Shown piece by piece: positions 8,015 to 46,624 of a stretch of 46,624 nucleotides of DNA. Source of the DNA: a virus (taxonomy: Duplodnaviria; Heunggongvirae; Uroviricota; Caudoviricetes); the IMG/VR virus record IMGVR_UViG_3300029858_000359; one strand, given 5' to 3'. The position numbers and the translations under genes are program-made. Below the pieces are notes generated by a model that made no database searches, was not told the DNA's origin, and worked only from the letters and a program-made list of their open reading frames with translations. Positions within the stretch are counted from its first letter, which is position 1. Every line of letters begins with the position of its first letter.

Positions 8015-8559
8015 GCCTCCATCGCTTTATCAGGTTTGTCGGTGTTACTGCCCTGACCGTTCTCTCTGTGACGATGCCCGTTATAGGCAAGCCGCATCGC
8101 TGACATGGTGGTGCCGCCGGAGTCGCACAGGTCTTTCACCTGTCCTGTCACTTCCAGGTCCATTTCAAAACGTGCTTCAGGTGCATTGCGAAACGTGATC
8201 GTTTTACCTGCACCGTCCACCACGATCCCCTCCCGGGTCAGCGTCACGGACTGCCCCTGATCGTCATAGACAGCCACCTCACCCGTCTGCAGCCCTTTCA
8301 GGCGGTAACGCCGGTCCGACACCGTAACAACCACCGCATGAGAACGGTCACCATCCGGAAACAACACCACCGCTTCCGCACCGCTGTTTGCCCTTGCGGT
8401 AAAACCGTAGGGTTCAAGATGTTCAACCCCGGCTTTGGGTTCACCGGCAATCAGGGACACATCCACGGTCTGACATTTCGTGGCGGCACTGATGCTTTTC
8501 ACCACCGCCCGCCCAATCAGGCCGAGGAGTTGTCGCTGTATGGTTTCAATCGCCTTCAT
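8011..8559 (-). CDS. Baseplate assembly protein V (spike), Mu gp45-like
   Basis: 182-aa ORF; position in module. Confidence 0.6.
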   Translation of the reverse strand: MKAIETIQRQLLGLIGRAVVKSISAATKCQTVDVSLIAGEPKAGVEHLEPYGFTARANSGAEAVVLFPDGDRSHAVVVTVSDRRYRLKGLQTGEVAVYDDQGQSVTLTREGIVVDGAGKTITFRNAPEARFEMDLEVTGQVKDLCDSGGTTMSAMRLAYNGHRHRENGQGSNTDKPDKAMEA

Positions 8560-9638
8560 CAGAACGGGTCCTCCTGTACTCTGGCTTTTTTCTTTTTCCG
8601 CGCGCCGGGGGCTTCGGGTTCAGGCAGATAAGCATCAGGTGGGCCGACACGGATTTCCGTCAGGGTGCCATTCTGGTCCTGAGTAAACGTGACTTCCGAG
8701 ACAAGCAGTTCGGTATTGTCGAAACCACAGACCGGATCGAAGACAATCACCCGCTGGTTGGGCTGCCACAGCGTACCGTTACCCTGTCGCCAGCCCTGCA
8801 CCACATAGGTGGTTTCATCCGTCCGCGCCGCCCGTTGTCGGGCTTCAAAGTCAGCACGCGCAATACAGCCTGCCCCCGTAGCCTGCCCTGTCTGCCTGAT
8901 ATACATCGGACGATAACGGGCAATAAATGCATCCTCTGTGCGGGCCCGCAGCGCGGTGGTGGTGGCCTCACCGAAATCATCGTCGTTTCCGGCACGCTGC
9001 CCCGCCACCTGGTAAACTGAAAACCGCTCCCGGATACTCTTCTCCGTATCACAGGAAAGGATGTTTTCCCCAAGTACCAGCGCGGTATGTGCCCGCGTTG
9101 AGCCAATACCACCAATCACCAGCCTGCCGTGCGGGTCGTCATAAGCCAGCGCCTGCTGCTGACCGAGTATTTTGTTGATCACCTCGATCACCGTTTCACC
9201 GTGATCAGGCTGGACATCCGGAATAACACCCGACGGCGCATTGCTGTTCACCACCTCAATGCCGAAAGGCGCAGCAAGCGCCTGCGCAATCTGTACCAGC
9301 GATCGTCCGTTAAACTGTGTCGGTTCGGCTGCACAGTCAATCAGGTCAGCAGTCAGACTACGTCCGGCAATACCGGTGCTGACCGAACGGGCATCGTAAC
9401 GAACGGGGGTCGCCTCCACCCAGCCGGTGATCACCAGCTCATCACCAATCAGCACTTCCACTTTTGAACCATTTTTAATGCGCGGCTGAAGCGTGGTGAT
9501 ACCCTCATCACCCGGCCACTGGCGGGTGATCTCCACGCTGAAATCCCGCGCCAGCCGTTCAATACCGGCACCGATGCGCACCGATGTCCAGCCATTCCAC
9601 TCCCGGCCATTTACCCGTAGCGTGACATTGTCGTTCAT
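8559..9638 (-). CDS. Tail or baseplate hub protein, Mu P (gp44)-like
   Basis: 359-aa ORF following the DNA circulation protein gene. Confidence 0.55.
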   Translation of the reverse strand: MNDNVTLRVNGREWNGWTSVRIGAGIERLARDFSVEITRQWPGDEGITTLQPRIKNGSKVEVLIGDELVITGWVEATPVRYDARSVSTGIAGRSLTADLIDCAAEPTQFNGRSLVQIAQALAAPFGIEVVNSNAPSGVIPDVQPDHGETVIEVINKILGQQQALAYDDPHGRLVIGGIGSTRAHTALVLGENILSCDTEKSIRERFSVYQVAGQRAGNDDDFGEATTTALRARTEDAFIARYRPMYIRQTGQATGAGCIARADFEARQRAARTDETTYVVQGWRQGNGTLWQPNQRVIVFDPVCGFDNTELLVSEVTFTQDQNGTLTEIRVGPPDAYLPEPEAPGARKKKKARVQEDPF

Positions 9639-10980: not shown

Positions 10981-11008
10981 AAAAGCCACCTATTAGAAGG
11001 TGGCCTTG
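10981..11008 (-). terminator. Rho-independent terminator of the tail-embedded moron
   Basis: On the minus strand GCCACC-TTCTAATA-GGTGGC hairpin followed by TTTTTAATTTT. Confidence 0.6.
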
Positions 11009-11024
11009 TAATGAATTTTATTAA

Positions 11025-11555
11025 TTAGCGAGTCAGAAACAACGAATCTTTATACTTTTGCTGTTGTTCATTTAAATACTTAGCTGTTTCATCGCTGGCA
11101 AATGGAAATATTACCGTATTTTTAGGCATGGTAATTTCTTTTTTGTCCAGCGTCAGAGTAAACATAGGAACATACTGAGCAGAGTAACGCACCGCAGAAA
11201 CGAGCTCTAGTTTAGACTCTTCAATAACACTTAAATTATCCAGGCTAACTTTCTCTTCATCTTTTTTCTTTGACGCATTTAAAGTTTTTATTACTTTATT
11301 TAATTTCTCCTGAAAATCCTCCTTAAAGTTTTCAGGATTGCCGTCGACAACAAGAATCTGTTCACCCTGATTATCTGGAAAAATAATCTTTGCACTTATC
11401 AATTTATTTTCTTTATAAACATCACCAAGTTTTATGGCTCCTCCAGATAACTGAATAATATGTTCATCTTTAAAGGAGATGTTGCCAGAGATTATGAGAG
11501 ATGAAAAAATAGCCGCTGCTCCAAGAATTACACTTGCTGTGATATAGCCTTTCAT
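11025..11555 (-). CDS. Moron: hypothetical exported or membrane-anchored protein, 176 aa
   Basis: AT-rich insert between tape-measure and DNA-circulation genes, with its own promoter and terminator; N-terminal signal or anchor MKGYITASVILGAAAIFSSLIISG. Confidence 0.65.
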   Translation of the reverse strand: MKGYITASVILGAAAIFSSLIISGNISFKDEHIIQLSGGAIKLGDVYKENKLISAKIIFPDNQGEQILVVDGNPENFKEDFQEKLNKVIKTLNASKKKDEEKVSLDNLSVIEESKLELVSAVRYSAQYVPMFTLTLDKKEITMPKNTVIFPFASDETAKYLNEQQQKYKDSLFLTR

Positions 11556-22942: not shown

Positions 22943-23442
22943 GATTCGATGATTTTCAGAAACGGGTTAGTGGCTTTCTTCTGCCCCGCCAGGCCAATCA
23001 GACGCTGGCGGCTGCTGGGGTCGAGTCCGAGCATTGCCCCCGTACTGCTCATCTCGGACTCCTGTTCTTTTTTGGCGGTCAGCTCCGGATTTTTGACCAT
23101 ACCGCCCATTGCACCGGTGATGGTGTTGCCCTGTCTGGCAATATTTTTCACGGCACGTCGCCAGAACTCGTAGGCCACGCACCACCGCTCAAGCACCGCG
23201 AGGTCAGTCACGCACAGCAGGCCCTGACCGCAGAGTTCTTTAGTTGTCAGTTGCCACATGATCGTAGCGAGAGGGAGATCTTCTTCAGCGAACCACTCCG
23301 GTGGCTCAACACCTTTGATGGGCGTAAAAACAGGTTCATCTTTATTCAGGGCTCGCTTGCCGGGGTTTCCGGCCAGCGCCTTGCGCGCCGTTGGCTTGGG
23401 GCGACGCCCGGAACGCCCCGCCGTTCCAGCCATATGCGGCAC
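22939..23442 (-). CDS. Terminase small subunit (P27-like)
   Basis: 167-aa ORF upstream of and overlapping the large terminase. Confidence 0.75.
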
Positions 23443-23483
23443 TCCTGGTTAAATTTCATTTTTCGCGGGTATAAAAAAACGAT

Positions 23484-23532
23484 GGGGCGGGCAGTCCGGA
23501 AGACGTCAGGTCACAGAGATTTGACCCGCCCC
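23484..23532. repeat. GC-rich inverted repeat between HNH and terminase genes, possible cos or packaging-site region
   Basis: GGGGCGGG ... CCCGCCCC separated by about 33 nt. Confidence 0.3.
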
Positions 23533-23558
23533 TCCCCTCAGACAGTTGAGAATTATTA

Positions 23559-23909
23559 TCACTTTAGCCGTTCACGGGCCGTCTTCGCCTTATGGCACGG
23601 CCAGCACAGGCTCTGCAGATTACTGTCTGCATCGGTGCCGCCATGCGCTTTAGGGATGATGTGGTCAACGGTTTTCGCCTCACGCACCACACCAGCACGC
23701 AGACATAACTGACACAGGCCTTTGTCACGCTTCAATATGCGCGCGCGGATACTGTCCCACTTCGAACCGTAGCCGCGCTGATGACGGGATTGCCCCGGCT
23801 TGTATTGTTTCCAGCCTTCGTTTTTGTGGCTTTCGCAGTAGCCTGACGAGTCAGTGGTGGTATGGGGGCAGCCGCGAACGCGGCAGGCTTTTGGGGTTCG
23901 TGGTGGCAT
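23559..23909 (-). CDS. HNH endonuclease (terminase-associated)
   Basis: Cysteine and histidine motifs CRVRGCPHTT, CQLCLRAG, VDHIIPKAHGG, CWPCHKAK; start set at the internal Met with AGAGGA ribosome-binding site. Confidence 0.85.
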   Translation of the reverse strand: MPPRTPKACRVRGCPHTTTDSSGYCESHKNEGWKQYKPGQSRHQRGYGSKWDSIRARILKRDKGLCQLCLRAGVVREAKTVDHIIPKAHGGTDADSNLQSLCWPCHKAKTARERLK

Positions 23910-24059
23910 TGCATAATCCTCTTGGATGGTTCGCGTGCGATACGTGGCATCCTTCTCAGAATCGAATCGCACTCCACTCCGGTTTTGCCATAAACGATCT
24001 TTTATGCTTCGCTGGATGTAGTTGATAGTTGTTGAAACTCAATGAACAGGAGTTCACAA

Positions 24060-24395
24060 ATGAATAGTTATGAATGGGAATGGCTTTTAAACAAAGATGA
24101 CACCCTATGCTTTTTCCCCGTAGGCCATTCTGTAGAAGGTAATTACAAAATTCACTTTGAGTTGAGCGGTAGTTGTAACCTTAGAGTCTCAGATGCTGAA
24201 TGGCATGGTAAACCTGTACTGCTGTTCGAATACTTCGATGAAGATGATGACCGCCCTGCAATAATCGAAATATTAGAAACAACCACTACAACTGTGGAGG
24301 CGATGATCGCACATCTGAATAGTATCGATAGTATTTACCATGAACCGATTTACAAAGCGGTTTACGAGTGGGCCGTAAAGTTTTTCTATCGATGA
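24060..24395 (+). CDS. Moron gene 1: hypothetical acidic protein, about 111 aa
   Basis: AT-rich ORF opposite in orientation to flanking late genes; AGGAG ribosome-binding site 7 nt upstream of ATG at 24060; no family recognised. Confidence 0.55.
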   Translation: MNSYEWEWLLNKDDTLCFFPVGHSVEGNYKIHFELSGSCNLRVSDAEWHGKPVLLFEYFDEDDDRPAIIEILETTTTTVEAMIAHLNSIDSIYHEPIYKAVYEWAVKFFYR

Positions 24396-24495
24396 TACTT
24401 CGTTATCTTGCTGGCATTCACAATACCTTTACATACTAATGACATGCCAGCACAATACTGTCACTTACAACCGTTCGGATTACCTAGAGAAAAGT

Positions 24496-25065
24496 ATGAT
24501 TCAGGATTTACTGATCGAAGCAATTAGTCACGATAGGATGCATAAAAAGTTAAATGAACTGAATTGCTACTTCTACAATCGCAAACATGAAACTCAAATA
24601 CGTGATGAGTTAGTTGTTATTCTCAATCAAATCAGCACACTAACTGCTTTAAGTGAGCATCCAAAACTCGGTATCGGCGCTGTTGACATATCACTTTATA
24701 ACCAGTCGATATTAACGTCTGAACATAATGGCAATGTTGCAACCATCGAGATCAAACACCATTACCCAAAGGATTTACTTTATCGGCAAGTTCAAGAAGA
24801 CATCATTTCCGATATTTCAAGAGTAATAGTTTCACCAACTACACATTTTATCCATATAATCCAGCAAAGAACTAGGATTAATACTCCTTCTTTTGGCCAA
24901 GTGAAATTCCTTGAACGTGATGCAAGTGATATCAGCACTTATGTGCAATGCCTTGAAGAGCTAAGTTCCTTCCCCAGTATCTTTCATAAAAAAAGTATAT
25001 GTATTGAGGTACTTGGTGAAATTATGTCGACATATACCTTTAACGTATATTCATTTGACAACTGA
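24496..25065 (+). CDS. Moron gene 2: hypothetical protein, about 189 aa (ORF track start 24439)
   Basis: AT-rich ORF directly after moron gene 1; no recognisable motifs. Confidence 0.5.
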   Translation: MIQDLLIEAISHDRMHKKLNELNCYFYNRKHETQIRDELVVILNQISTLTALSEHPKLGIGAVDISLYNQSILTSEHNGNVATIEIKHHYPKDLLYRQVQEDIISDISRVIVSPTTHFIHIIQQRTRINTPSFGQVKFLERDASDISTYVQCLEELSSFPSIFHKKSICIEVLGEIMSTYTFNVYSFDN

Positions 25066-25086
25066 TTAATTTGACAATTTTATTGC

Positions 25087-25344
25087 TTAATGGTTAGTTC
25101 TCTCTGCATCTATTTTACGAATATCAGCTTTATCCCGATTGCAGTTAGCCAGTGCAGACAACAGACTCACATTCAGCTCCAGGCTGGCACCATAAGTCAG
25201 AGGATTTGGTATGAACGGTACAGGTGTTTCAGAAGTCAGACTAGTCGGTAATGTTGTAGCCGGAGTGCTCACGTAAACTGTCCGCGTACTTCCGCAACCG
25301 CTCAGCAGCGGCAGCAGGCACAAGGCGTGCAGCACAACCATCAT
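25087..25344 (-). CDS. o-spanin (Rz1-like outer-membrane lipoprotein)
   Basis: MMVVLHALCLLPLLSGC lipobox followed by Pro-rich region; overlaps the 3' end of the Rz-like gene in another frame. Confidence 0.65.
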   Translation of the reverse strand: MMVVLHALCLLPLLSGCGSTRTVYVSTPATTLPTSLTSETPVPFIPNPLTYGASLELNVSLLSALANCNRDKADIRKIDAERTNH

Positions 25345-25621
25345 CCGCAACAGCCACTTTGATATCTTTCTGGGTTCTCTGTGACTCCAGTGCGATCTGC
25401 TGTTTTGCATGCTGGTTAATCTCTATAACTGTATTGACGATTTGCAGTGATTGCAGGACGTTACGGGTAATGGCTGTTGCAGATTCAGCATTTTGTACAG
25501 CCTCATCAGCACGTTTCTTTTCGTGCTGATATTTGCTGTAGTAGTGGTTGGCAGACCAGATGAAAGAACCGATGACAGTAAAGAAGAATGCAGCGATAAC
25601 CAGCTTATAGCTCAACTTCAT
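25241..25621 (-). CDS. i-spanin (Rz-like)
   Basis: N-terminal transmembrane helix then coiled-coil periplasmic domain; immediately downstream of endolysin. Confidence 0.7.
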   Translation of the reverse strand: MKLSYKLVIAAFFFTVIGSFIWSANHYYSKYQHEKKRADEAVQNAESATAITRNVLQSLQIVNTVIEINQHAKQQIALESQRTQKDIKVAVADDGCAARLVPAAAAERLRKYADSLREHSGYNITD

Positions 25622-26081
25622 TTACCACCCCACCAGCCTCTTTAAATCGGGCAATCAGGTCACCGATTTTATGTTCATACTGACCGTAACCAGCGCCCGG
25701 CAGTGAAGCCCAGATATTGCTGCAACGATCGATAGCCTGACGAATATCGCCGCGATCAATCATCGGTAAAGCGCCACGCTCTTTAATCTGCTGCAATGCC
25801 ACAGCATCCTGGCTTTTTGGAGAGAAGTCTTTCAGCCCAAGCTGCTTGCGGTAAGCATCCCACCAGCGTGAAAGAAGTTGATAACGGCCTGCAGCTGTTG
25901 ATTTGAGTTTCGGGTTTAGCGTGACAAGTTTGCGAGGGTGATCGGAGTAATCAGTGAAGAGTTCTCCACCGACAATAACGTCATAACCATGATTACGTGT
26001 CGGTTGTAGCCCATTATCCGTTCCTTCTGACCAGGCCACCATATCGAGGAAAGCTTTACGCTGAGGATTAAGATTTTGCAT
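25605..26081 (-). CDS. R: Endolysin, lambda R-type lytic transglycosylase
   Basis: 158-aa protein recognised as near-identical to lambda R (QRKAFLDMVAWSEGTDNG...NHGYDVIVGGELFTDYSDHPRKLVTLNPKLKS). Confidence 0.9.
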   Translation of the reverse strand: MQNLNPQRKAFLDMVAWSEGTDNGLQPTRNHGYDVIVGGELFTDYSDHPRKLVTLNPKLKSTAAGRYQLLSRWWDAYRKQLGLKDFSPKSQDAVALQQIKERGALPMIDRGDIRQAIDRCSNIWASLPGAGYGQYEHKIGDLIARFKEAGGVVNEVEL

Positions 26082-26524: not shown

Positions 26525-26860
26525 TTATTTTACATCCCAAGGTAGTTCCTCAAGAGAGAAGACTAATTCATTATCAATAATTTCGTATTCTGCATAACCT
26601 TCAACCTCTCCTGAGAAGTTATTGTCAACGCATCCTTCATAATAGCTATATGGTGCTATAAAGTGAAACCCATATTCATCTATCTCTGTGATTTCAAAAT
26701 TGTAGTAATCGTAAGAATATCGAATATCATCATCAGAAATAGAACTAAGTACATAGTTATTAAATTTATCGGAATGCTTAACGATAAGCTCTGACAACGC
26801 GTCAAGATTCTCTGGAGAGATATTTCCTAACGGTAATCTGTACTCAACGGCATTAATCAT
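26525..26860 (-). CDS. Hypothetical small acidic protein, 111 aa, in the Q-to-holin slot
   Basis: AT-rich ORF between the late terminator and the holin; no family recognised. Confidence 0.5.
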   Translation of the reverse strand: MINAVEYRLPLGNISPENLDALSELIVKHSDKFNNYVLSSISDDDIRYSYDYYNFEITEIDEYGFHFIAPYSYYEGCVDNNFSGEVEGYAEYEIIDNELVFSLEELPWDVK

Positions 26861-30027: not shown

Positions 30028-30350
30028 ACTTTCAGGCCCCTCTCATGTAACCAGTGGGTTGCACGCAGCCTTGCGTTTTCCTCACCGGCAAGCAGTGAGC
30101 GGATAATCCCGACCGCCTCGCTGTCGTCGTCCTTCACCGCGGTATGAAGCGTGATGCCCCGGGCCACGCCACGCTTTATCGTGATGACGCCTTTTTTCTC
30201 CAGTGCGCGAAGATGCTCCACCGCTGCATTCACTGAACGGTATCCCAGCATGGTTGCCACCTCCTGATTGGTTGGCGGGAAGCCACGTTCTTTCTGATAA
30301 GAAATCAGCATATCCAGCACCTGCTGCTGGCATTGAGTTAACGTCGTCAT
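30024..30350 (-). CDS. LexA N-terminal DNA-binding domain protein lacking the S24 peptidase domain
   Basis: QQQVLDMLISYQKERGFPPTNQEVATMLGYRSVNAAVEHLRALEKKGVI closely parallels the LexA winged-helix region; only 108 aa. Confidence 0.7.
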   Translation of the reverse strand: MTTLTQCQQQVLDMLISYQKERGFPPTNQEVATMLGYRSVNAAVEHLRALEKKGVITIKRGVARGITLHTAVKDDDSEAVGIIRSLLAGEENARLRATHWLHERGLKV

Positions 30351-31033
30351 GCCGCCATCTCCCTGACCAGTTTTTCTGCCTGCTGGCGAACCTGCGCCAG
30401 AAAGGCCTCACCACATGCCTCAAGTTCATCGCGCCCGATGTAGCTGATTGCCGGTCCCTTCCAGGTCTTGTCGAAAACAGCAATAGCACCAGCGAAGAAA
30501 GCGCCTGTCGGCACCTGCTTCTCATCCTTCGGGATAAACCAGGCAGGCAGTTCAAAACCAATACGCCCGCGAATAAAAGCAATATGATCTGCATCTTCCG
30601 GCCACCACACTTCGCTGGTGGCAGCTTTGATCAGGAAAACATAGCGCCCGCCTTTATCACGCATGGCACTGGCATGCTTCATGATGTAACGCATGCCGGT
30701 GATGTATTGCCCCTCATGCTGACTGGCGCGGCTGTATGGGGGATTACCAAAGGCAGCACCTTTAAGCTCCGCAAGGCGTTCTGACCAGTCATGCGCCAGC
30801 GCGTTGTCTTCCGCCGTGTAATACGCAGCACATTTGGCGTTATCACCGTCAGTAAACAGATCCAGAACAAACGGGCCAAACAGAGTGTTAATTCCCCAGA
30901 AAATGTTGTCCGGCGTGCGCCACTGATCGCCCACTTCCTTCAGTTCATGGGCTGGTTTGTTCCGCAGTTCCGCCAGCGCCTGGCAATATTTATTACTCAT
31001 TAAGCCCCCACGTAATTCCCTGAGAGATACCAC
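30347..31033 (-). CDS. Phage N6-adenine DNA methyltransferase
   Basis: Catalytic motif FGNPPYS; 228 aa; early-region position. Confidence 0.75.
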   Translation of the reverse strand: MVSLRELRGGLMSNKYCQALAELRNKPAHELKEVGDQWRTPDNIFWGINTLFGPFVLDLFTDGDNAKCAAYYTAEDNALAHDWSERLAELKGAAFGNPPYSRASQHEGQYITGMRYIMKHASAMRDKGGRYVFLIKAATSEVWWPEDADHIAFIRGRIGFELPAWFIPKDEKQVPTGAFFAGAIAVFDKTWKGPAISYIGRDELEACGEAFLAQVRQQAEKLVREMAA

Positions 31034-38416: not shown

Positions 38417-40150
38417 ATGGCAAATCAAATTACCAAACTAAAAAATATAAATGTTGTGAAGTTTCGCGGACTGAAAAATATAAACATCGAGTTTGGTTCT
38501 CGCCTAACTGTTATTTGTGGTAAAAATGGCACATCTAAATCCACAATTCTTGGCATTATCGCCCAAATATTTAGCTTTACAAAGGACTTTACCAAAAACC
38601 CTGAGACTGATTTAACACAATATAAAACATTAACAAATGGCAGCTTCAAGTCAGCTTTCAGCGAACATTTTAGGCTTTCAGAACAATTTGATGTTCCTGG
38701 TTCAATGGACGTCAAAATTAGTGTCTATGATGGTGCATCGAACAAACATCTTGAAAAACTAACATTAGGTTTATACAGCTACAGTGACAGAGATAAATCA
38801 AGGCCTGTAGTCAGGGGAAATGATTCAATACCGGAAAAAAACCAAAGTAGAAACGTTACTCATCCTGTTATTTTTTTAAGCTTAGCACGACTTCTTCCTA
38901 TTACATTAAGGACTGATTACTCAACACGGGATGTTCAGTACATCAATGAAAATTCTGATGAAATCAGAATGATGAGTAACCAACTCTTACTAAAAAACAA
39001 TGGAAGCTCAGTAACAGCAACAAAAGGTACTATCGATTCAATGGTTGTCCATGGTGACAATTATGATCACCAATCAGTATCTGTTGGTGAAGATAATGTT
39101 GGACAATTAATCCAAGCAATTTTTTCATTTAAAAGATTGAAGGAAACTTATTCTGATTATCATGGCGGAATATTGTTAATTGATGAAGCCGATGCAGGTC
39201 TTTTCCCTGCTGCACAGTTAGAGCTAATTAATATTCTAACTAAAGCAGCAAAACAATACGATCTGCAAATAATCATGACCTCGCACTCTCCATTAATAAT
39301 AGAGGATATCTATAATCGTTCAAAACAAGATAGTGATAGCTTTAAAACAATATATCTTACAGACACATATGGAGATATTAAAACAAAGAATAATCTTTCA
39401 TGGACAGATATCCACGCTGATTTACATGTTGAAACTGTAAAAATTAATGATGACATTTGTCTTCCAAAGGCAAATGTATATTTTGAAGACAAAGAAGGTT
39501 TCGACTTTTTCAAACAATTGATAACAGATCGAAAAATAAATAAAATATTAAATCCATTAGGGAATATAAATATTAGCTGCTCTGCCATGCTTGACTTAAT
39601 GGCAAGAAAAATACCAGAATTTACAGCTAAAAGCTTGATCGTCTTAGACGGTGATGTTGTTCACGACAATAGTGCTAATGCAAAAAAAGCCAAAAAAGAA
39701 AAAAACTTATGTTTGCTTCCAAGCACCTTACCTCCAGACCAAATGATTTTTGAGTTTTTATATAATTTACCACCTGATGATGCATATTGGGAAAATAAAA
39801 ATAAATTTACAAAAGCTGTTTTTATGAAAACAGCTAAAGACATAATTGCAACGCTAAAGATTGGTAACGCTCCGATTGATTTAAAAATCCTTATAGATAA
39901 TTATAAAAAAGTTAACAAAAACCATGGCGGGATAGTTAGAAAACTGTTTAAAGATTTTGCACATACGACTCAATTTCAGGCCCAAGTAAAAGGGCGAGTT
40001 AAAGATAACCCATATCGATATTGGGTCGAGAAAAATCCTGTGCAATCGGATAGCTTCAAGAATGAACTAATAAAGAGTCTTAAAGTTATTATGACAAGTG
40101 GACATGGTGTCGATTCTGCTACCATCTCATCATATCTGTCAGATAACTAA
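38417..40150 (+). CDS. OLD-family nuclease-like protein: N-terminal ABC/AAA-type ATPase plus C-terminal TOPRIM-like domain
   Basis: Walker A GKNGTSKST, Walker B ILLIDEADAG, TSHSP signature, C-terminal FEDKEG and LIVLDGDVVHD (Glu and DxD TOPRIM-like); start at MANQITK (ORF track start 38366 lacks a ribosome-binding site). Confidence 0.7.
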   Translation: MANQITKLKNINVVKFRGLKNINIEFGSRLTVICGKNGTSKSTILGIIAQIFSFTKDFTKNPETDLTQYKTLTNGSFKSAFSEHFRLSEQFDVPGSMDVKISVYDGASNKHLEKLTLGLYSYSDRDKSRPVVRGNDSIPEKNQSRNVTHPVIFLSLARLLPITLRTDYSTRDVQYINENSDEIRMMSNQLLLKNNGSSVTATKGTIDSMVVHGDNYDHQSVSVGEDNVGQLIQAIFSFKRLKETYSDYHGGILLIDEADAGLFPAAQLELINILTKAAKQYDLQIIMTSHSPLIIEDIYNRSKQDSDSFKTIYLTDTYGDIKTKNNLSWTDIHADLHVETVKINDDICLPKANVYFEDKEGFDFFKQLITDRKINKILNPLGNINISCSAMLDLMARKIPEFTAKSLIVLDGDVVHDNSANAKKAKKEKNLCLLPSTLPPDQMIFEFLYNLPPDDAYWENKNKFTKAVFMKTAKDIIATLKIGNAPIDLKILIDNYKKVNKNHGGIVRKLFKDFAHTTQFQAQVKGRVKDNPYRYWVEKNPVQSDSFKNELIKSLKVIMTSGHGVDSATISSYLSDN

Positions 40151-40157
40151 TTGATTA

Positions 40158-40196
40158 AAAAGGGCTTTATGTGATGGCCACAAAGCCCTTTTTTTG
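40158..40196 (+). terminator. Rho-independent terminator after the OLD-like gene
   Basis: AAAGGGCTTT-loop-AAAGCCCTTT followed by TTTTTT. Confidence 0.65.
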
Positions 40197-40229
40197 ATAT
40201 ACTTTAGATCTGACATTTAGAGGTATCAT

Positions 40230-41129
40230 ATGCGTTTTAACACCCCACTTCGCTATCCTGGCGGTAAAGGCAAGCTTGCAAATTTCATGCTTCGGCTTAT
40301 TGAAGAAAATAATCTTTCGCCTATACATTATGCCGAACCATATGCTGGGGGTGCTGGTTTAGCATTGAAACTGTTACATCTAAATGCAGCTGAAAAAATC
40401 ATCCTTAATGATATTAATATTTCTGTTTATGCTTTTTGGCACAGTGTATTAAATCATGCAGATCAATTATGTTCTTTAATTGAAAGAACTGAAGTTACAA
40501 TGGATGAATGGTTTAGGCAGAAAGATATAATTAATAATCCTAAAGACCATGATCTTTTAACAATTGGTTTCTCAACCTTTTTTCTCAATAGAACAAATCG
40601 TTCTGGAATATTAAAAGGTGGAGTAATTGGCGGTAAAAATCAAGAAGGGAAATGGAAGCTTGACGCTCGCTATAATAAGAGTGATTTGATTTCTCGAATC
40701 CATAAAATATCAGAAAATCGTCACAGAATAGATTTATATAACATGGATGCAATTGATTTCATTAAAAAAATAGTTATTCAATTGCCACAAAACTCATTAA
40801 CATATTTGGATCCACCTTATTACATAAAAGGTAAAGGTTTATATATCAACCATTATAATCATGATGATCATGTTAGGGTTGCAAAAGTCGTACAGAATAA
40901 TATTAAAACACCTTGGATTGTTTCTTACGATAACACTCCTGAGATCCAAGCTATGTATAAGACATCATCATTAGTATATGGAATAAACTACAGTGCTCAA
41001 GATCGGTACAAAGGATCTGAGGTAATGTTCTTCAGTGAACGATTGAAAATCTTTAAAACAGATGATCCAACTAAGGTAAAAGCGCCTGTATTTAAAAGAG
41101 GATGTGTTGACGACCACATCCAGACATAA
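40230..41129 (+). CDS. Dam-family (alpha-class) N6-adenine DNA methyltransferase
   Basis: Motifs RYPGGKGKL, EPYAGGAG (AdoMet binding) and DPPY (catalytic), order as in Dam; AGAGG ribosome-binding site. Confidence 0.8.
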   Translation: MRFNTPLRYPGGKGKLANFMLRLIEENNLSPIHYAEPYAGGAGLALKLLHLNAAEKIILNDINISVYAFWHSVLNHADQLCSLIERTEVTMDEWFRQKDIINNPKDHDLLTIGFSTFFLNRTNRSGILKGGVIGGKNQEGKWKLDARYNKSDLISRIHKISENRHRIDLYNMDAIDFIKKIVIQLPQNSLTYLDPPYYIKGKGLYINHYNHDDHVRVAKVVQNNIKTPWIVSYDNTPEIQAMYKTSSLVYGINYSAQDRYKGSEVMFFSERLKIFKTDDPTKVKAPVFKRGCVDDHIQT

Positions 41130-41399: not shown

Positions 41400-42629
41400 A
41401 TGGCAAAAATCGCTAAGAAGCTCACTGACACTGAAATCAAAAGCACCAAGCCAGCCGATAAAGAAATCAACTTGTTTGACGGTGATGGTCTGATTCTACG
41501 AATCGCTCCTTTGGCGAAAGGAGGCAAGAAAAATTGGTATTTCAGGTATGCAGTACCAGTGAGCAAGAAAAGAACCAAAATGAGCCTTGGGACATATCCT
41601 CACCTTACCCTTGCAAGAGCCAGAGCCTTACGTGATGAATATCTCTCCTTTCTGGCAAATGGTGTTGATCCCCAAATCCATAACAACGATAAGGCGAAGG
41701 CATTAAAGAGTGCTACTGAGCACACTCTCCAAGCCGTAGCGCGGAAATGGTTAGATGAGAAGGTAAAGACATCAGGTATCTCACAAGACCATGCAGCAGA
41801 CATCTGGCGCAGCTTAGAGAGAAATGTCTTTCCCGGTCTGGGTAATGTCCCTATCAATGAGATCCGACCTAAGCTCTTAAAACAACACCTTGATCCTATT
41901 GAGCAACGAGGCGTATTGGAAACTCTACGCCGTATCATTTCACGTCTGAATGAAATCTTCCGGTGGGCAGCTACTGAAGAACTTATTGAGTTCAACCCGG
42001 CTGACAACCTTGGTCAAAGATTCAGTAAACCAAAAAAGCAAAATATGCCTGCCCTTCCCCCAAGCGAATTGCCAAGGTTTATGGAATCTTTGACGAATGC
42101 GTCAATCCGGTTGGAAACACGTATGCTAATTGAATGGCAATTGTTGACATGGGTTCGTCCGGGTGAAGCCGTTCGCGCAAGGTGGTCTGATATTGATACA
42201 ACCAACAGCATTTGGAACATTCCTGCTGATTTCATGAAAATGAAAAAGCTTCACAAAGTTCCTTTGAGTAAAGAAGCTTTGCGCATCCTTGAATTAATGA
42301 AATCAATAAGTGGGCATAGAGAATGGGTTTTCCCCAGCATAAAAGCGCCTCTTAATCATATGCATGAACAAACAGCCAACGCAGCTATCATCCGAATGGG
42401 GTTCGGAGGCGAGCTTGTAGCTCACGGTATGCGTTCTATTGCACGAACAGCGGCAGAGGAGTCTGGTAAATTCAGAGCTGAAGTTCTTGAGGCAGCGCTT
42501 GCCCACTCGAAAAAAGATGAAATTATCGCAGCATACAATCGTGCAGAATATCTGATAGAGCGACAGAGTTTGATGCAATGGTGGAGTGATTACGTTCAAG
42601 CTCAAAGATCAAATGCTCTGGTAGCCTAA
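41400..42629 (+). CDS. P4-type tyrosine integrase
   Basis: N-terminal arm-binding region LFDGDGLILRIAPLAKGGKKNWYFRY typical of P4/CP4-57 integrases; C-terminal catalytic region AHGMRSIARTAAEE...AALAHS; start taken at MAKIAKK. Confidence 0.85.
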   Translation: MAKIAKKLTDTEIKSTKPADKEINLFDGDGLILRIAPLAKGGKKNWYFRYAVPVSKKRTKMSLGTYPHLTLARARALRDEYLSFLANGVDPQIHNNDKAKALKSATEHTLQAVARKWLDEKVKTSGISQDHAADIWRSLERNVFPGLGNVPINEIRPKLLKQHLDPIEQRGVLETLRRIISRLNEIFRWAATEELIEFNPADNLGQRFSKPKKQNMPALPPSELPRFMESLTNASIRLETRMLIEWQLLTWVRPGEAVRARWSDIDTTNSIWNIPADFMKMKKLHKVPLSKEALRILELMKSISGHREWVFPSIKAPLNHMHEQTANAAIIRMGFGGELVAHGMRSIARTAAEESGKFRAEVLEAALAHSKKDEIIAAYNRAEYLIERQSLMQWWSDYVQAQRSNALVA

Positions 42630-42667
42630 GTATCATAATAGCTAATATAATCCTGAAGGTAAAGAAA

Positions 42668-43084
42668 ATGGAAACCCTATTCAAAGTTTTTGAAAAATTT
42701 AGTTCCAGACCACTTTTTTTTATTTTTTTCGGACTCTCACTTTGTGAATTTTTTCAGAAACAATCTGTTCTGATGAATCCATCAGCAGATAACATCGCGA
42801 AATTATTCGCAGCCATGATATTAGTTGTTTTTTTTACTTGGGGATTTGAATGGCTAATCTTCAAGTTCAATGTAAACCTTGAACCTCATGATCAAGGCGA
42901 TATTGGACCAACAATTGGAACGGCTACTTTAGCTGTATACTTAGTTTATGCCTTTCACTTTCTCAGTGAAAATCCTGAAGCATTAAATTTAAAGTTATTA
43001 ACTAACTCTGGCTTTATATACAGCACAACTCTATTATTATTCTCATTAGAATGCATGAAGCTTAGAAGACTTAAACAAAAATAA
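42668..43084 (+). CDS. Hypothetical polytopic membrane protein, 138 aa
   Basis: AT-rich ORF with GAAGG ribosome-binding site; several hydrophobic helices. Confidence 0.5.
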   Translation: METLFKVFEKFSSRPLFFIFFGLSLCEFFQKQSVLMNPSADNIAKLFAAMILVVFFTWGFEWLIFKFNVNLEPHDQGDIGPTIGTATLAVYLVYAFHFLSENPEALNLKLLTNSGFIYSTTLLLFSLECMKLRRLKQK

Positions 43085-43155
43085 ACAACATCATTGTGAT
43101 GATAAATATAAAATAGGCATGGCGAAAAAAAATCACCACGCCTAAAATATAATAA

Positions 43156-44922
43156 TTATGGTAGCATCATTGATACATAATCCACACCAATCCTTGAGCT
43201 ATACTGAGACGCTATAGCCTGATATCTTTCTGCATAACCAGTTCTCAGTTGAGATTTAAGTTTGAGTCGGACAGGAACATTTTGCACGTTGCCATCCATA
43301 TTACTTAAAAACACGGCAGAAATAATATTTTTTTCTTCGCCATCAACTGTTGTTCCATGATTCAACACCACCATATAATCAACAACAGGAAGCGTTTTAT
43401 CCCCTTCGAAAATAGAGAGATATTTTCTTTGATTTTTATGCATTACATATATATATTTCGAATGTTCAGCAAATGGCAATGCTTTACTCTGACTGGCGTT
43501 AAAAAGCTCCAGAACTTTAATGAGCCTGTGCGGACTTAATCTTACATGGTGAGGGTCGTTACCCTGAGTAGGAACCAAATCACATGCCGCAGATACACAT
43601 AAATACCATTTGTTCGACTCTGTATCAAAGAAAATAGTGCCAGTAGAAATATGACCATCTTCAAAATTCTTTGAAGACAAATTCATATTTAAAGCATGAT
43701 ACATTTCGTGATAAGTATCATTATTTGATGGCAGATCCATTTTTGAAGAGCAATATTGGAGCAATGCAGCAACTCCGCTGTTAGCGTATTCATTTGAATA
43801 GCTATCAAAAACACTTTTGATAAATTCATCCAGCGTATTATTATTTTTAAGTCTTTGATAAAGCTCTTCTGATAAATTACCAAATACAAAGTCAATATTT
43901 CTACATCTAATATCAGGCGAGTCTGATTTTAATATCTCATTTAACCACGCAGCTTGACCGTAATGATCGTTAGCCAAATGATTTACAAAAGATAAAGCCT
44001 CAGCTTCGATTGCATTCTGAATTTCAGATTTTATTAACTGATAATAAGATGGTTTCCATTCAATGAGAGAATCATTGAGAGTTTGCCAAATCCTATCTCC
44101 ATCGTTTTCATGATCATCTTGAACCTTATGAAATAGGGAGACAAAGATATTACCACATTGAATCCATTTTACTCCGCTTTCATCACCCCGAATGACATTG
44201 CCAGATGTGTTGCTAGAAATAATTGCATTTCTAGACACAGCATATTCTGCAATCATTTTTGCAATGAAGTTTTTATCCTTTTGATCCTCCAACACAGCAT
44301 CATCATGTATTAATCTTTTAATTCTTCTACAAGGCTTACTGTCTTTAATATAGGCTATTGTTTCATCTCTTGTGAGAGCTTTATTACCATTATCATTTAA
44401 GTTCGGTAATACAACGTCTTCCCAATAACTTTGGACATCTTCATTATCGTAGTCAATGATCAAGCTGTTGATATCCAGAGCACCTTTGAGAGTCGATGAT
44501 ATCTGCATCCAAACCGTTTCTAAATTCTCTCTAGTATATATTACAATCATATTTAAATGATCGGAGTCTTTCAAATCTTGTAATAGTTTAAGTGTTTTAT
44601 CAGGTGCATTATTATCAAGATGATAATCTACAATAATAAGATCTGATTTTCTAATCCGATCCACATCGAAATTAACAGAACCATTGTCAACATCACAAAT
44701 CATATTTTTAGATTGAAAAAAGCTCTCAAGAGTAGCGGCTCGTTTAGATGAGTCAATTTTGTTGTAGTCTAAATCAACTTCGTTATTCAACGCCCTGATT
44801 GATTCAGAATACGTCAGAAAATCGTCATCAATCATGACAACGGAACGAATTGCATTTTCGCAGAAAGTTTTCTGGACAAGAGAATTATAAATTGCCACTG
44901 TCATATTAGAACTCCACTCCAT
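43156..44922 (-). CDS. Receiver (REC)-like domain protein with about 430-aa C-terminal domain of unknown function
   Basis: N-terminal region VVMIDDD ... SDLIIVDYHLDNNAPDKTLKLLQDL ... NMIVIYT follows response-regulator receiver topology; no DNA-binding output recognised; start overlaps the stop of the upstream kinase-like gene. Confidence 0.6.
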   Translation of the reverse strand: MEWSSNMTVAIYNSLVQKTFCENAIRSVVMIDDDFLTYSESIRALNNEVDLDYNKIDSSKRAATLESFFQSKNMICDVDNGSVNFDVDRIRKSDLIIVDYHLDNNAPDKTLKLLQDLKDSDHLNMIVIYTRENLETVWMQISSTLKGALDINSLIIDYDNEDVQSYWEDVVLPNLNDNGNKALTRDETIAYIKDSKPCRRIKRLIHDDAVLEDQKDKNFIAKMIAEYAVSRNAIISSNTSGNVIRGDESGVKWIQCGNIFVSLFHKVQDDHENDGDRIWQTLNDSLIEWKPSYYQLIKSEIQNAIEAEALSFVNHLANDHYGQAAWLNEILKSDSPDIRCRNIDFVFGNLSEELYQRLKNNNTLDEFIKSVFDSYSNEYANSGVAALLQYCSSKMDLPSNNDTYHEMYHALNMNLSSKNFEDGHISTGTIFFDTESNKWYLCVSAACDLVPTQGNDPHHVRLSPHRLIKVLELFNASQSKALPFAEHSKYIYVMHKNQRKYLSIFEGDKTLPVVDYMVVLNHGTTVDGEEKNIISAVFLSNMDGNVQNVPVRLKLKSQLRTGYAERYQAIASQYSSRIGVDYVSMMLP

Positions 44923-46624
44923 TGAACTGGATCACAAAATTAGCGCCATCTTTTATTAAATAGTTATCGCCTTCATCAGGTTCTGAATACCATATTTTAT
45001 GATGTGCAACAGCAAGGTTTTCTCGACATAGATACAGACCTACCCCATGTCCATTTGCTCTTTTGCTATAAAATAGTTCAAATAGTCACGGGATATCATC
45101 GGTATCAATTGCCGGACCAGAATTTGCTATGATAACCAAAGAATTCACAAAACCAATCTTTATGAGCCTATTATTTGACAGACTGACCCAATACATTGCA
45201 TTGTTGATAATATTAGTAAAAACAGGATAGATCCTTGATGGTATATCTGTTATTGCGATTTGCTTAAACTCTTCACTAAATTCAATAGTTATTCGTTGCC
45301 GTTCGAAACGCTCCCCAAAGAACTTCAGGACATAATCCATGATATTTTTTCCAGTTATTCTCTGCCTGGATTGATAACCTGATATTTTCAAAGGTGATAA
45401 GAAACGTATTTGTTGAGTAAGCGATCTGTGAGCATTTAACGCCAATGAAAAACCAGGGTGTTCTTTTACAGAAGTAGGAAGAGAGTTTAGTCCTCTGGTT
45501 ACCATAGAATCCATTTCTTCAAGTTCATGAGATATTATCTCAACACTAATACCTAACTGTGCAAGCGCGTTTAAACTTTTAGCTTTTTCTTCAAAATATG
45601 AGCGTTCTTCTTCAGATAATGAGAATGCTGAATCTAAGTTTATACCTTCAAATAATCTATCGAGACCTTTTATTATTGATTGATATTTGAAAGTTAGGGT
45701 ATCAACTGACTCAACATATAAACTATCGAGCAAATTAAACACATTTTCAATTTGTGAATCATTATCTATTGAATCAACAACTGATATAGTTTTAGCATAA
45801 TAATCACTTCGATCAACCTTTATTTCATCGGCCCATTTTTTTAAAAGAGAATGTATCTTCTCCTCTATCGTGTTATTAAACTTAGTTAGTTTAGAATTAA
45901 TAATACCTTGATTTTTTTCAAGGTGATTTTTCGCTGACAATGAAGGCTCAAGTTTATTTAATTCAGAATCAAGTTTATTAATTGCTAACTTCATTTGTAG
46001 AATATACGCAGAGAACTCATTAAATTTATCTCTGTAGTCTCTATATTTCTCTTCATACATTCCAAGTTTTGGAGGTTTGATAGGCGTTTTAATTTCACTG
46101 CGCAACGCATCTAAGTTTGTAAGATCACTGTCTATAATTTTAAGATAGTTTAAATCTAACGAACCATCAGTTTTATCAAGCTTAGTTTTCAGCCTTTTAA
46201 CAGCCTCCAAGGAAGCATCAAGAACTGGTGTCTGATTCTTCAAAGCTTCTGAAAAACTTTTTTGTGTTGATTTTCGAGCTTGTTGTTGAGCAGATTTTCT
46301 TAACTCTTTTTCACGCTTAACTTGTTCTAAAAGCTCTTTACGGTCATCAGAACGTGAACCAAAAAATCTATCAGCAAGTTCAGTTAACAAATTAGATATA
46401 ATAGTTTTCAGTTCTCTTGCAGCCTGGTTTCTTATGAATCCCTCTCTCCCCGACTTATCTTTCAGCTCTTTATTACTGGATTGAGTAATTCCAATATAAC
46501 CAAAAATCCTTCTATTAGACCAATAATATCGCCCTGCATTCCATGAACGTCTTTCTTCTATCTGGAAGAAATCATTATCTACTCGACCATAAGGTAATAC
46601 TCTCAAGCTATCCCTAAAAATCAT
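44906..46624 (-). pseudogene. Histidine-kinase-like gene interrupted by an in-frame TGA (45086-45088); N-terminus beyond the window
   Basis: H-box-like SHELEEMDSM, N-box NIINNAMYW, G1 IANSGPAI, then in-frame TGA, then same-frame LFELFYSKRANGHGVGLYLCRENLAVAHH (G2 box) ending at the TAA at 44906. Confidence 0.55.

Follow-up and report, generated by a model that had tools for sequence, protein, structure and literature searches.

Two independently mobile single-gene morons, one encoding a predicted PD-(D/E)xK nuclease, stacked at the packaging/lysis junction of an Escherichia coli prophage

Between the packaging and lysis genes of a 46,624-nucleotide (nt) viral sequence (IMG/VR record IMGVR_UViG_3300029858_000359; this whole stretch is referred to as the window), two genes that we call A and B lie on the plus strand. 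The window is an SfV/e14-like (HK97-type) Escherichia coli prophage whose late genes are on the minus strand, in the order holin, endolysin, Rz/Rz1, HNH, small and large terminase (terS and terL), portal. We find that A and B are two stacked, independently mobile single-gene morons. On the basis of alignment and a structural model, B is predicted to represent an undescribed family of small PD-(D/E)xK nucleases with a restriction-enzyme fold, while A is an independently mobile, selected, prophage-borne accessory protein. In the reading that we favor, at a probability of about 0.55, B would be a minimal nuclease expressed in the lysogen that attacks incoming DNA, and A would be a separate binding protein. 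The features of the locus, in window positions, are:

23910 to 25117, no strand: AT-rich inserted segment (blastn breakpoints against loci L001-L004; composition)
23956 to 23999, minus strand: remnant 5′ end of a foreign terS of the Terminase_2 type (invariant block CCGGTTTTGCCATAAA)
24048 to 24052, plus strand: ribosome-binding site AGGAG of gene A (sequence)
24060 to 24395, plus strand: gene A, 111-amino-acid (aa) acidic protein, phrog_14397 (open reading frame, PHROG, homologues, loci with A only)
24428 to 24456, plus strand: σ70 promoter-like site TTTACA-17-CACAAT in the A-B spacer (consensus match)
24496 to 25065, plus strand: gene B, 189 aa, phrog_12494, predicted stand-alone PD-(D/E)xK nuclease (PHROG, alignment, AlphaFold2 model)
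23559 to 23909, minus strand: left flank, 116-aa HNH endonuclease belonging to the packaging module (Pfam HNH, E 3e-16; Prokaryotic Genome Annotation Pipeline, PGAP)
25087 to 25350, minus strand: right flank, o-spanin gene Rz1/LysC, which ends the lysis cassette and converges with B (Pfam LysC, E 2e-17; PGAP)

The segment between the HNH/terminase genes and Rz1 is an insertion. A megablast search of deposited phages showed that both flanks match vB_EcoM-720R4, SfIV and SfV and that the middle is missing from all three; pairwise blastn against empty-site phages placed the end of homology at 23909 and its restart at 25118. In the closest phages HNH lies directly beside Rz1, and the HNH-Rz1 interval is 72 base pairs (bp) in vB_EcoM-720R4 versus 1208 bp in the window. 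HNH actually begins at the ATG at 23909, which gives 116 aa and agrees with what PGAP annotates in an identical prophage, and 25118 falls 31 nt inside the 3′ end of Rz1, whose stop is at 25087 on the minus strand. Other relatives (689R6, SKA5 and 118970_sal3) have unrelated minus-strand open reading frames (ORFs) at the junction. The insert has a G+C content (GC) of 0.378 (A, 0.40; B, 0.36), against about 0.55-0.58 in the flanks (HNH, 0.58; terL, 0.54). It is moron-like in being missing from close relatives and distinct in base composition.

A preliminary description, made from the letters of the sequence, had seen the two plus-strand ORFs of 111 and 189 aa in a minus-strand late region and the AT-richness of the DNA, and had proposed an insertion. 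Both ORFs were found, the composition agrees, and synteny with the phages named above bears out the insertion; the boundaries it gave, 23973-25080, have to be moved outward to 23910-25117. A repeat search found no flanking direct repeats of the kind left by transposon-type insertion, and Rfam found no RNA family in 23400-25700. No clear terminator was found flanking the A or B cassettes, only a weak terminator-like hairpin at 24357-24376.

A and B are real genes, because the ratio of nonsynonymous to synonymous substitution rates (dN/dS) is low for both and both are conserved between genera. Purifying selection is seen in A against a close variant (dN/dS = 0.24) and in B against E. coli strain GF60 (0.10) and Yersinia (0.12), and intergeneric orthologues of either gene share 60-75% amino acid identity, with dN of about 0.2 and saturated synonymous sites. 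Chance ORFs are ruled out by these values. The AGGAG noticed earlier before the first gene is confirmed as its ribosome-binding site, with 7 nt between it and the ATG. The in-frame ATG at 24042 was rejected as the start of A, since it has no ribosome-binding site and the homologues begin at the position of 24060. Likewise, a 208-aa reading of B from 24439 was rejected because all homologues and phrog_12494 (189 positions) begin at MIQ and a promoter-like site lies inside the extension.

That promoter-like site in the A-B spacer bears on how B might be expressed. Both of its hexamers are kept in GF60, where B lacks A, as are about 115 nt upstream of B, and B thus seems to carry its own promoter-like upstream region. 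The spacer also holds a 14-nt inverted repeat (24404-24417 and 24444-24457; 86% complementary, 26-nt loop) that overlaps the -10-like hexamer before B. Because its left arm is not conserved in GF60, this repeat is probably not a conserved operator. At the other end of the gene, a tandem near-repeat (ATTCATTTGACAA and ATTAATTTGACAA, 25049-25077) with TTGACA in each copy spans the B stop codon and is directed into the 3′ end of Rz1.

The assignment of B as a nuclease comes from its modeled fold and from the residues that its family keeps. The AlphaFold2 model (predicted local distance difference test score, pLDDT, 84.6; predicted template-modeling score, pTM, 0.85) contains a helix at residues 30-46, strands at 50-53, 65-68 and 80-89, a helix at 97-108 and a strand at 117-127, matching the alpha-beta-beta-beta-alpha-beta core fold of the PD-(D/E)xK superfamily. 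Across 31 B-family sequences, down to 19% identity, K30, E32, D64, E85 and K87 are the only invariant columns, and E32, D64, E85 and K87 are the predicted catalytic residues. E32 lies in the first core helix (30-46), D64 at the start of strand 65-68, and E85-x-K87 in strand 80-89. A glutamate on helix 1, an aspartate on strand 2 and ExK on strand 3 form the canonical PD-(D/E)xK layout; in B the arrangement of D64, E85 and K87 with E32 is predicted as a linear order, read from the alignment together with the modeled secondary structure.

Profile comparisons point in the same direction. The sub-threshold matches of individual B-family members are to PD-(D/E)xK families only and fall in the same region: HSDR_N in a 47%-identical relative of B (E 1.4e-4, 22.2 bits versus a cut-off of 25.1) and weak matches to PDDEXK_9, DpnII-MboI, DUF234 and REase_II. 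Foldseek comparison of the B model with PDB and BFVD gave nothing significant; the best structural matches were orthodox Type II enzymes of the EcoRV/SwaI branch, and a B-family profile had no match among all PDB sequences at E values up to 10. The family is small, with relatives in only 42 clusters in a profile search of 1.84 billion representative proteins and in only 4 species in a scan of genome contigs with alignment A4. A literature search found no mention of WP_000613841 or WP_001089762. The Gifsy protein GiPD474 is an ATPase and unrelated. The preliminary description saw no recognizable motifs in either protein and suggested remote homology and structure prediction as a check; for B these revealed a predicted PD-(D/E)xK fold and motif, while A indeed has no catalytic-looking motif and its AlphaFold2 model (pLDDT 53) is unusable.

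Neither in the window nor at any of the related loci examined does a methyltransferase adjoin B. The sole methyltransferase of the window is a lambdoid early-region N6-adenine enzyme at 30350-31000, 5 kilobases (kb) away. The 47%-identical relative is chromosomal and single, flanked on one side by tusA/recJ and on the other by genes for an acetyltransferase and a uracil-DNA glycosylase (UDG). Because there is no adjacent methyltransferase and this relative stands alone in a chromosome, the B family appears to be tolerated without a dedicated protector. Among more distant members, one metagenomic contig (L021, 616-1164 and 1219-1767) carries a tandem pair of 182-aa genes; another member lies next to a PDDEXK_4 protein (L133, 795-1487), and another next to a GIY-YIG gene and copCD (L026-L028).

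The two genes were at first described as one two-gene module, possibly a toxin-immunity pair, and in E. coli this annotation is tempting. Among 5426 complete E. coli genomes A is present in 79 and B in 80, both annotated as hypothetical proteins, and A precedes B by 100 nt in all 27 IMG/VR contigs whose B is of the E. coli type (at least 96% identity). This linkage is one lineage-specific arrangement. Of 24 diverged B loci (50-70% identity; Yersinia, Enterobacter, Citrobacter, Klebsiella and Proteus types), not one carries a homologue of A in the surrounding 4 kb, and B is likewise missing from all 12 diverged A loci. B is alone in Yersinia; it is preceded by an unrelated 77-aa ORF in Enterobacter, by a 103-aa signal-peptide ORF in Proteus and by a 151-aa minus-strand ORF in E. 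coli GF60, from which A is absent. A, in turn, is found alone in Escherichia sp., Serratia, Pantoea and gut metagenome contigs. The adjacency across lineages that would mark a toxin-antitoxin or toxin-immunity system is thus not seen.

These data bear directly on the possibility that acidic A neutralizes nuclease B until infection frees B. Such a pair would account for the near-constant co-occurrence in E. coli, and the net charge of A (-12) and its invariant DEDDD loop are reminiscent of DNA-mimic inhibitors; repeated disruption of B by insertion sequences (IS) would also fit. Nevertheless, the independence data contradict it, and we regard it as very improbable: B is intact without A in GF60 and in all 24 diverged prophage loci, A is intact without B in all 12 of its own, the genes upstream of B vary among loci and are unrelated to A, and the region upstream of B is kept where A is missing.

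Different E. coli strains (L036, PS1Thumoskin9; L037, 24AR0142; L038, CD45) have IS3-family insertions in B, at about nt 111-115 and at about nt 320, and B is truncated in 5 of the 27 viral contigs (IMG/VR loci L062, L075 and L089-L091). A is intact wherever B is interrupted or truncated. In CD45 a deletion extends to icd, the e14 attachment site. These disruptions may reflect a cost of B.

The A and B cassettes share a docking site. Among the 38 diverged loci, the left neighbor is a minus-strand packaging gene in 33 and the right neighbor a minus-strand lysis gene in 34, as judged with packaging and lysis marker proteins; the remaining neighbors are unidentified, and no locus contradicts the packaging/lysis pattern. 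At least five types of packaging module are represented (P27 terS with HNH, three Terminase_2 groups, DUF2280 with a metallopeptidase, and ParB/Mom), and A or B is antisense to the late operon in all loci, on at least five phage backbones. The distance to the terS ATG is usually 37 nt for solitary B and 67-69 nt for A.

Remnants of terS beside the cassettes suggest how they are exchanged. In the relic of the window, the ribosome-binding site is degenerate, and the ATG at 23991-23989 opens a reading of MAKPEWSAIRF that ends in a stop; its 36 nt at 23956-23991 read, on the minus strand, ATGGCAAAACCGGAGTGG... and then the stop. In the A-only loci L011 and L014-L018, the block CCGGTTTTGCCATAAA is the start of a functional terS, and from this sequence match the relic appears to have been imported along with gene A. 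Similar terS stubs precede B in Citrobacter, Enterobacter and Yersinia. We conclude from such stubs that the cassettes are swapped through recombination within the 5′ end of terS or close to it, and that they stack.

Gene A offers fewer clues to its function. The protein is acidic, as first noted (isoelectric point, pI, 4.56; net charge -12), and the threonine stretch remarked on at that time is a run of five that is not kept in homologues. Its family is an ORFan confined to Enterobacterales prophages (38 clusters). A 27-sequence alignment has the near-invariant segments LYFYP, SD, FEY-DEDDD-P and a C-terminal H...IY...EWA helix. Scans of Pfam, PADLOC, NCBIfam and PHROGs assigned A only to an unannotated PHROG, and 4 of the 27 members weakly match the P22 antirepressor C-terminal domain (best E 0.007). 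A resembles neither the acidic 111-aa ORF at 26525 nor the small genes that precede B in Enterobacter and Proteus. Overall, binding is a likelier mode of action for A than catalysis. A defense role for A is plausible, because its hotspot matches that of taiEcA of phage phi80.

The taiEcA gene is the closest positional parallel to both A and B. This gene for a 204-aa protein sits where the lysis and packaging genes of phi80 meet, running against the Q-driven late operon and interrupting it (He et al. 2024, PMC11364771). The lysogen produces the protein, which stops other phages by blocking tail assembly; Q lowers its expression, and transposons knock the gene out when its counter-defense is missing (PMC11364771). 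taiEcA thus occupies the same junction in the same antisense orientation as A and B, and the earlier characterization of this junction as a moron site agrees with that precedent. There is, however, no sequence kinship: the hhalign probability for Tai with A and with B is <1% each, which rules out either as a Tai homologue. The two also differ in kind, since Tai blocks tail assembly whereas B has a predicted nuclease fold, and no Ati-like late-strand partner was identified at the window locus. In a Proteus sp. prophage (L024), a 207-aa opposite-strand ORF upstream of the holin (8388-9011, plus strand) is a TaiEcA homologue (28% identity over 121 aa; pairwise E 8e-11). The same phage has a B homologue, and therefore carries Tai-like and B genes at two antisense sites.

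From these observations we propose the following. Two single-gene morons would have been inserted by recombination at the packaging/lysis junction of an SfV/e14-like prophage, both in an orientation in which they would be transcribed antisense to the Q-dependent late operon. In the lysogen, B would be transcribed from a promoter of its own and would attack incoming DNA, such as that of a superinfecting phage, without needing a methylase; its specificity may be for DNA modification, structure or ends, like that of Type IV enzymes or Shedu. During induction of the prophage itself, antisense late transcription would damp B, as shown for taiEcA (PMC11364771). By this analogy, B probably protects the lysogen from incoming DNA. 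A would be a separate small acidic protein that binds another protein and probably serves as an exclusion, defense or counter-defense factor.

Among known defense systems, B can also be compared with Shedu (SduA, DUF4263), which is likewise a single-gene, methylase-less defense built on a PD-(D/E)xK core like the one predicted for B. A distant B-family member (P0052) gives a sub-threshold match to residues 169-237 of the PADLOC SduA model, the helix-D-ExK region, with E 1e-5. B of the window, however, has no SduA or DUF4263 match in PADLOC or Pfam, is about half the size of SduA and lacks an N-terminal sensor domain. Among the Type II enzymes of the EcoRV-like branch that were compared (R.SwaI, BglI, MspI, NlaIV, HincII and EcoRV), none has detectable sequence similarity to B. 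Unlike a Type II restriction-modification system, B is a lone gene in a prophage hotspot with no adjacent cognate methyltransferase.

In their setting, A and B are also comparable to lambda bor and HK97 gp15, the classical lambdoid morons (see reference 15 of PMC11364771). Each is an extra low-GC gene between late genes, missing from close relatives and likely expressed from the prophage. The cargo differs, in that bor and gp15 encode membrane proteins or lipoproteins and the window carries a predicted nuclease and an acidic ORFan, and in the window two cassettes are stacked.

The distribution of B could also be produced by a selfish element. If B were a free-standing homing endonuclease that cuts B-less phages near the terS/lysis junction, with no part in defense, this would explain its sporadic presence and absence among near-identical phages, its occurrence always at one junction and the terS stubs that move with the cassette in a way that resembles co-conversion, and it would need no methylase. 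We consider this improbable. The flanks are wholly different among the backbones enumerated above, so no common target site is evident, and the distant relatives of B are chromosomal singletons. Moreover, A and taiEcA, neither of which is a nuclease, behave alike in position, and therefore the hotspot itself accounts for the pattern. We also think it unlikely that B, A or both serve the lytic cycle or counter-defense, for example in host-DNA degradation, in recombination or junction resolution, or with A as an anti-restriction DNA mimic. The acidity of A, which recalls Ocr/ArdA-type mimics, and its weak antirepressor-domain matches would suit such a role. On the other hand, both genes are antisense to the late operon and are missing from the close and viable isolated phages 720R4, SfIV and SfV, and neither protein had a tblastn match among 50,697 deposited phage genomes. 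Neither is therefore a core phage function, and a function in the phage's own lytic cycle is unlikely.

In one further explanation, B is a Type II endonuclease protected by unlinked Dam, Dcm or the prophage N6-adenine methyltransferase. Its best structural matches in the EcoRV/SwaI branch, the restriction of all close hosts to Enterobacterales and the N6-adenine methyltransferase at 30350-31000 would accord with this. We nevertheless give it little credence, since no locus examined has an adjacent methyltransferase, the early-region enzyme is a common lambdoid gene that is also present without B, and relatives of B stand alone in unrelated chromosomes.

Several points weigh against our preferred account of B as a lysogen-expressed defensive nuclease and A as a separate binding protein. 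B has no PADLOC, Pfam or NCBIfam match at threshold, and PHROGs places it only in an unannotated phrog. Its mid-distance and distant relatives lie in ordinary chromosomal neighborhoods (recJ/UDG, copCD), which would fit a repair or housekeeping nuclease as well. For A, the AlphaFold2 model is too poor for a fold search and no convincing promoter was found upstream of the gene, and the role that we give it is a guess.

Other accessory DNA is present in the window. A second AT-rich gene (GC 0.34; 26525-26860, minus strand), between the holin and a Q-like antiterminator, encodes a very acidic 111-aa protein (pI 4.05; phrog_13663). In sister prophages the holin-Q junction holds a TIR-domain and caspase-family pair (EC21Z-014), a KwaB-like pair (GF60) or a DNA methyltransferase (PS1Thumoskin9 and 720R4). 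Because the cargo differs between sisters, this junction is a second cargo hotspot of the phage family. The varied cargo of this junction in sister prophages, the co-occurrence of Tai and B in Proteus and the IS3 insertions in B are consistent with a cargo that is rich in defense genes and sometimes costly. Further AT-rich islands (GC 0.29-0.35) lie at about 11001-11500 and at 38500-41000 and 42500-46600. The one in the tail region adjoins the insertion site of an IS5 in EC21Z-014, an element that the window lacks, and the large one lies beyond the early region. These islands may be additional accessory cargo.

A wider proposal, which we offer tentatively and regard as rather doubtful, is that the B family constitutes an unrecognized class of minimal anti-phage nuclease. 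Its members would have about 190 aa, no sensor domain and no methylase, and would be carried as a single-gene cassette divergent from terS in many Enterobacterales prophages, with self-damage avoided partly by substrate specificity and partly by antiterminated late transcription running antisense through the gene on induction. A would then be a second, unrelated new exclusion or defense protein at the same docking site. If B does protect lysogens, it would add to the defense catalogue a very small nuclease family that PADLOC, Pfam and NCBIfam miss. For annotation, A and B should not be called a system simply because they are neighbors in E. coli. Taken more broadly, the loci suggest that the terS-lysis interval is a general docking site at which single-gene defense cassettes, each with a stub of the adjacent terS, are exchanged among lambdoid, P22-like and HK97-like prophages that are not related to one another. 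A simple rule for mining further candidates would thus be to search the opposite strand for genes 37-70 nt away from the start of terS.

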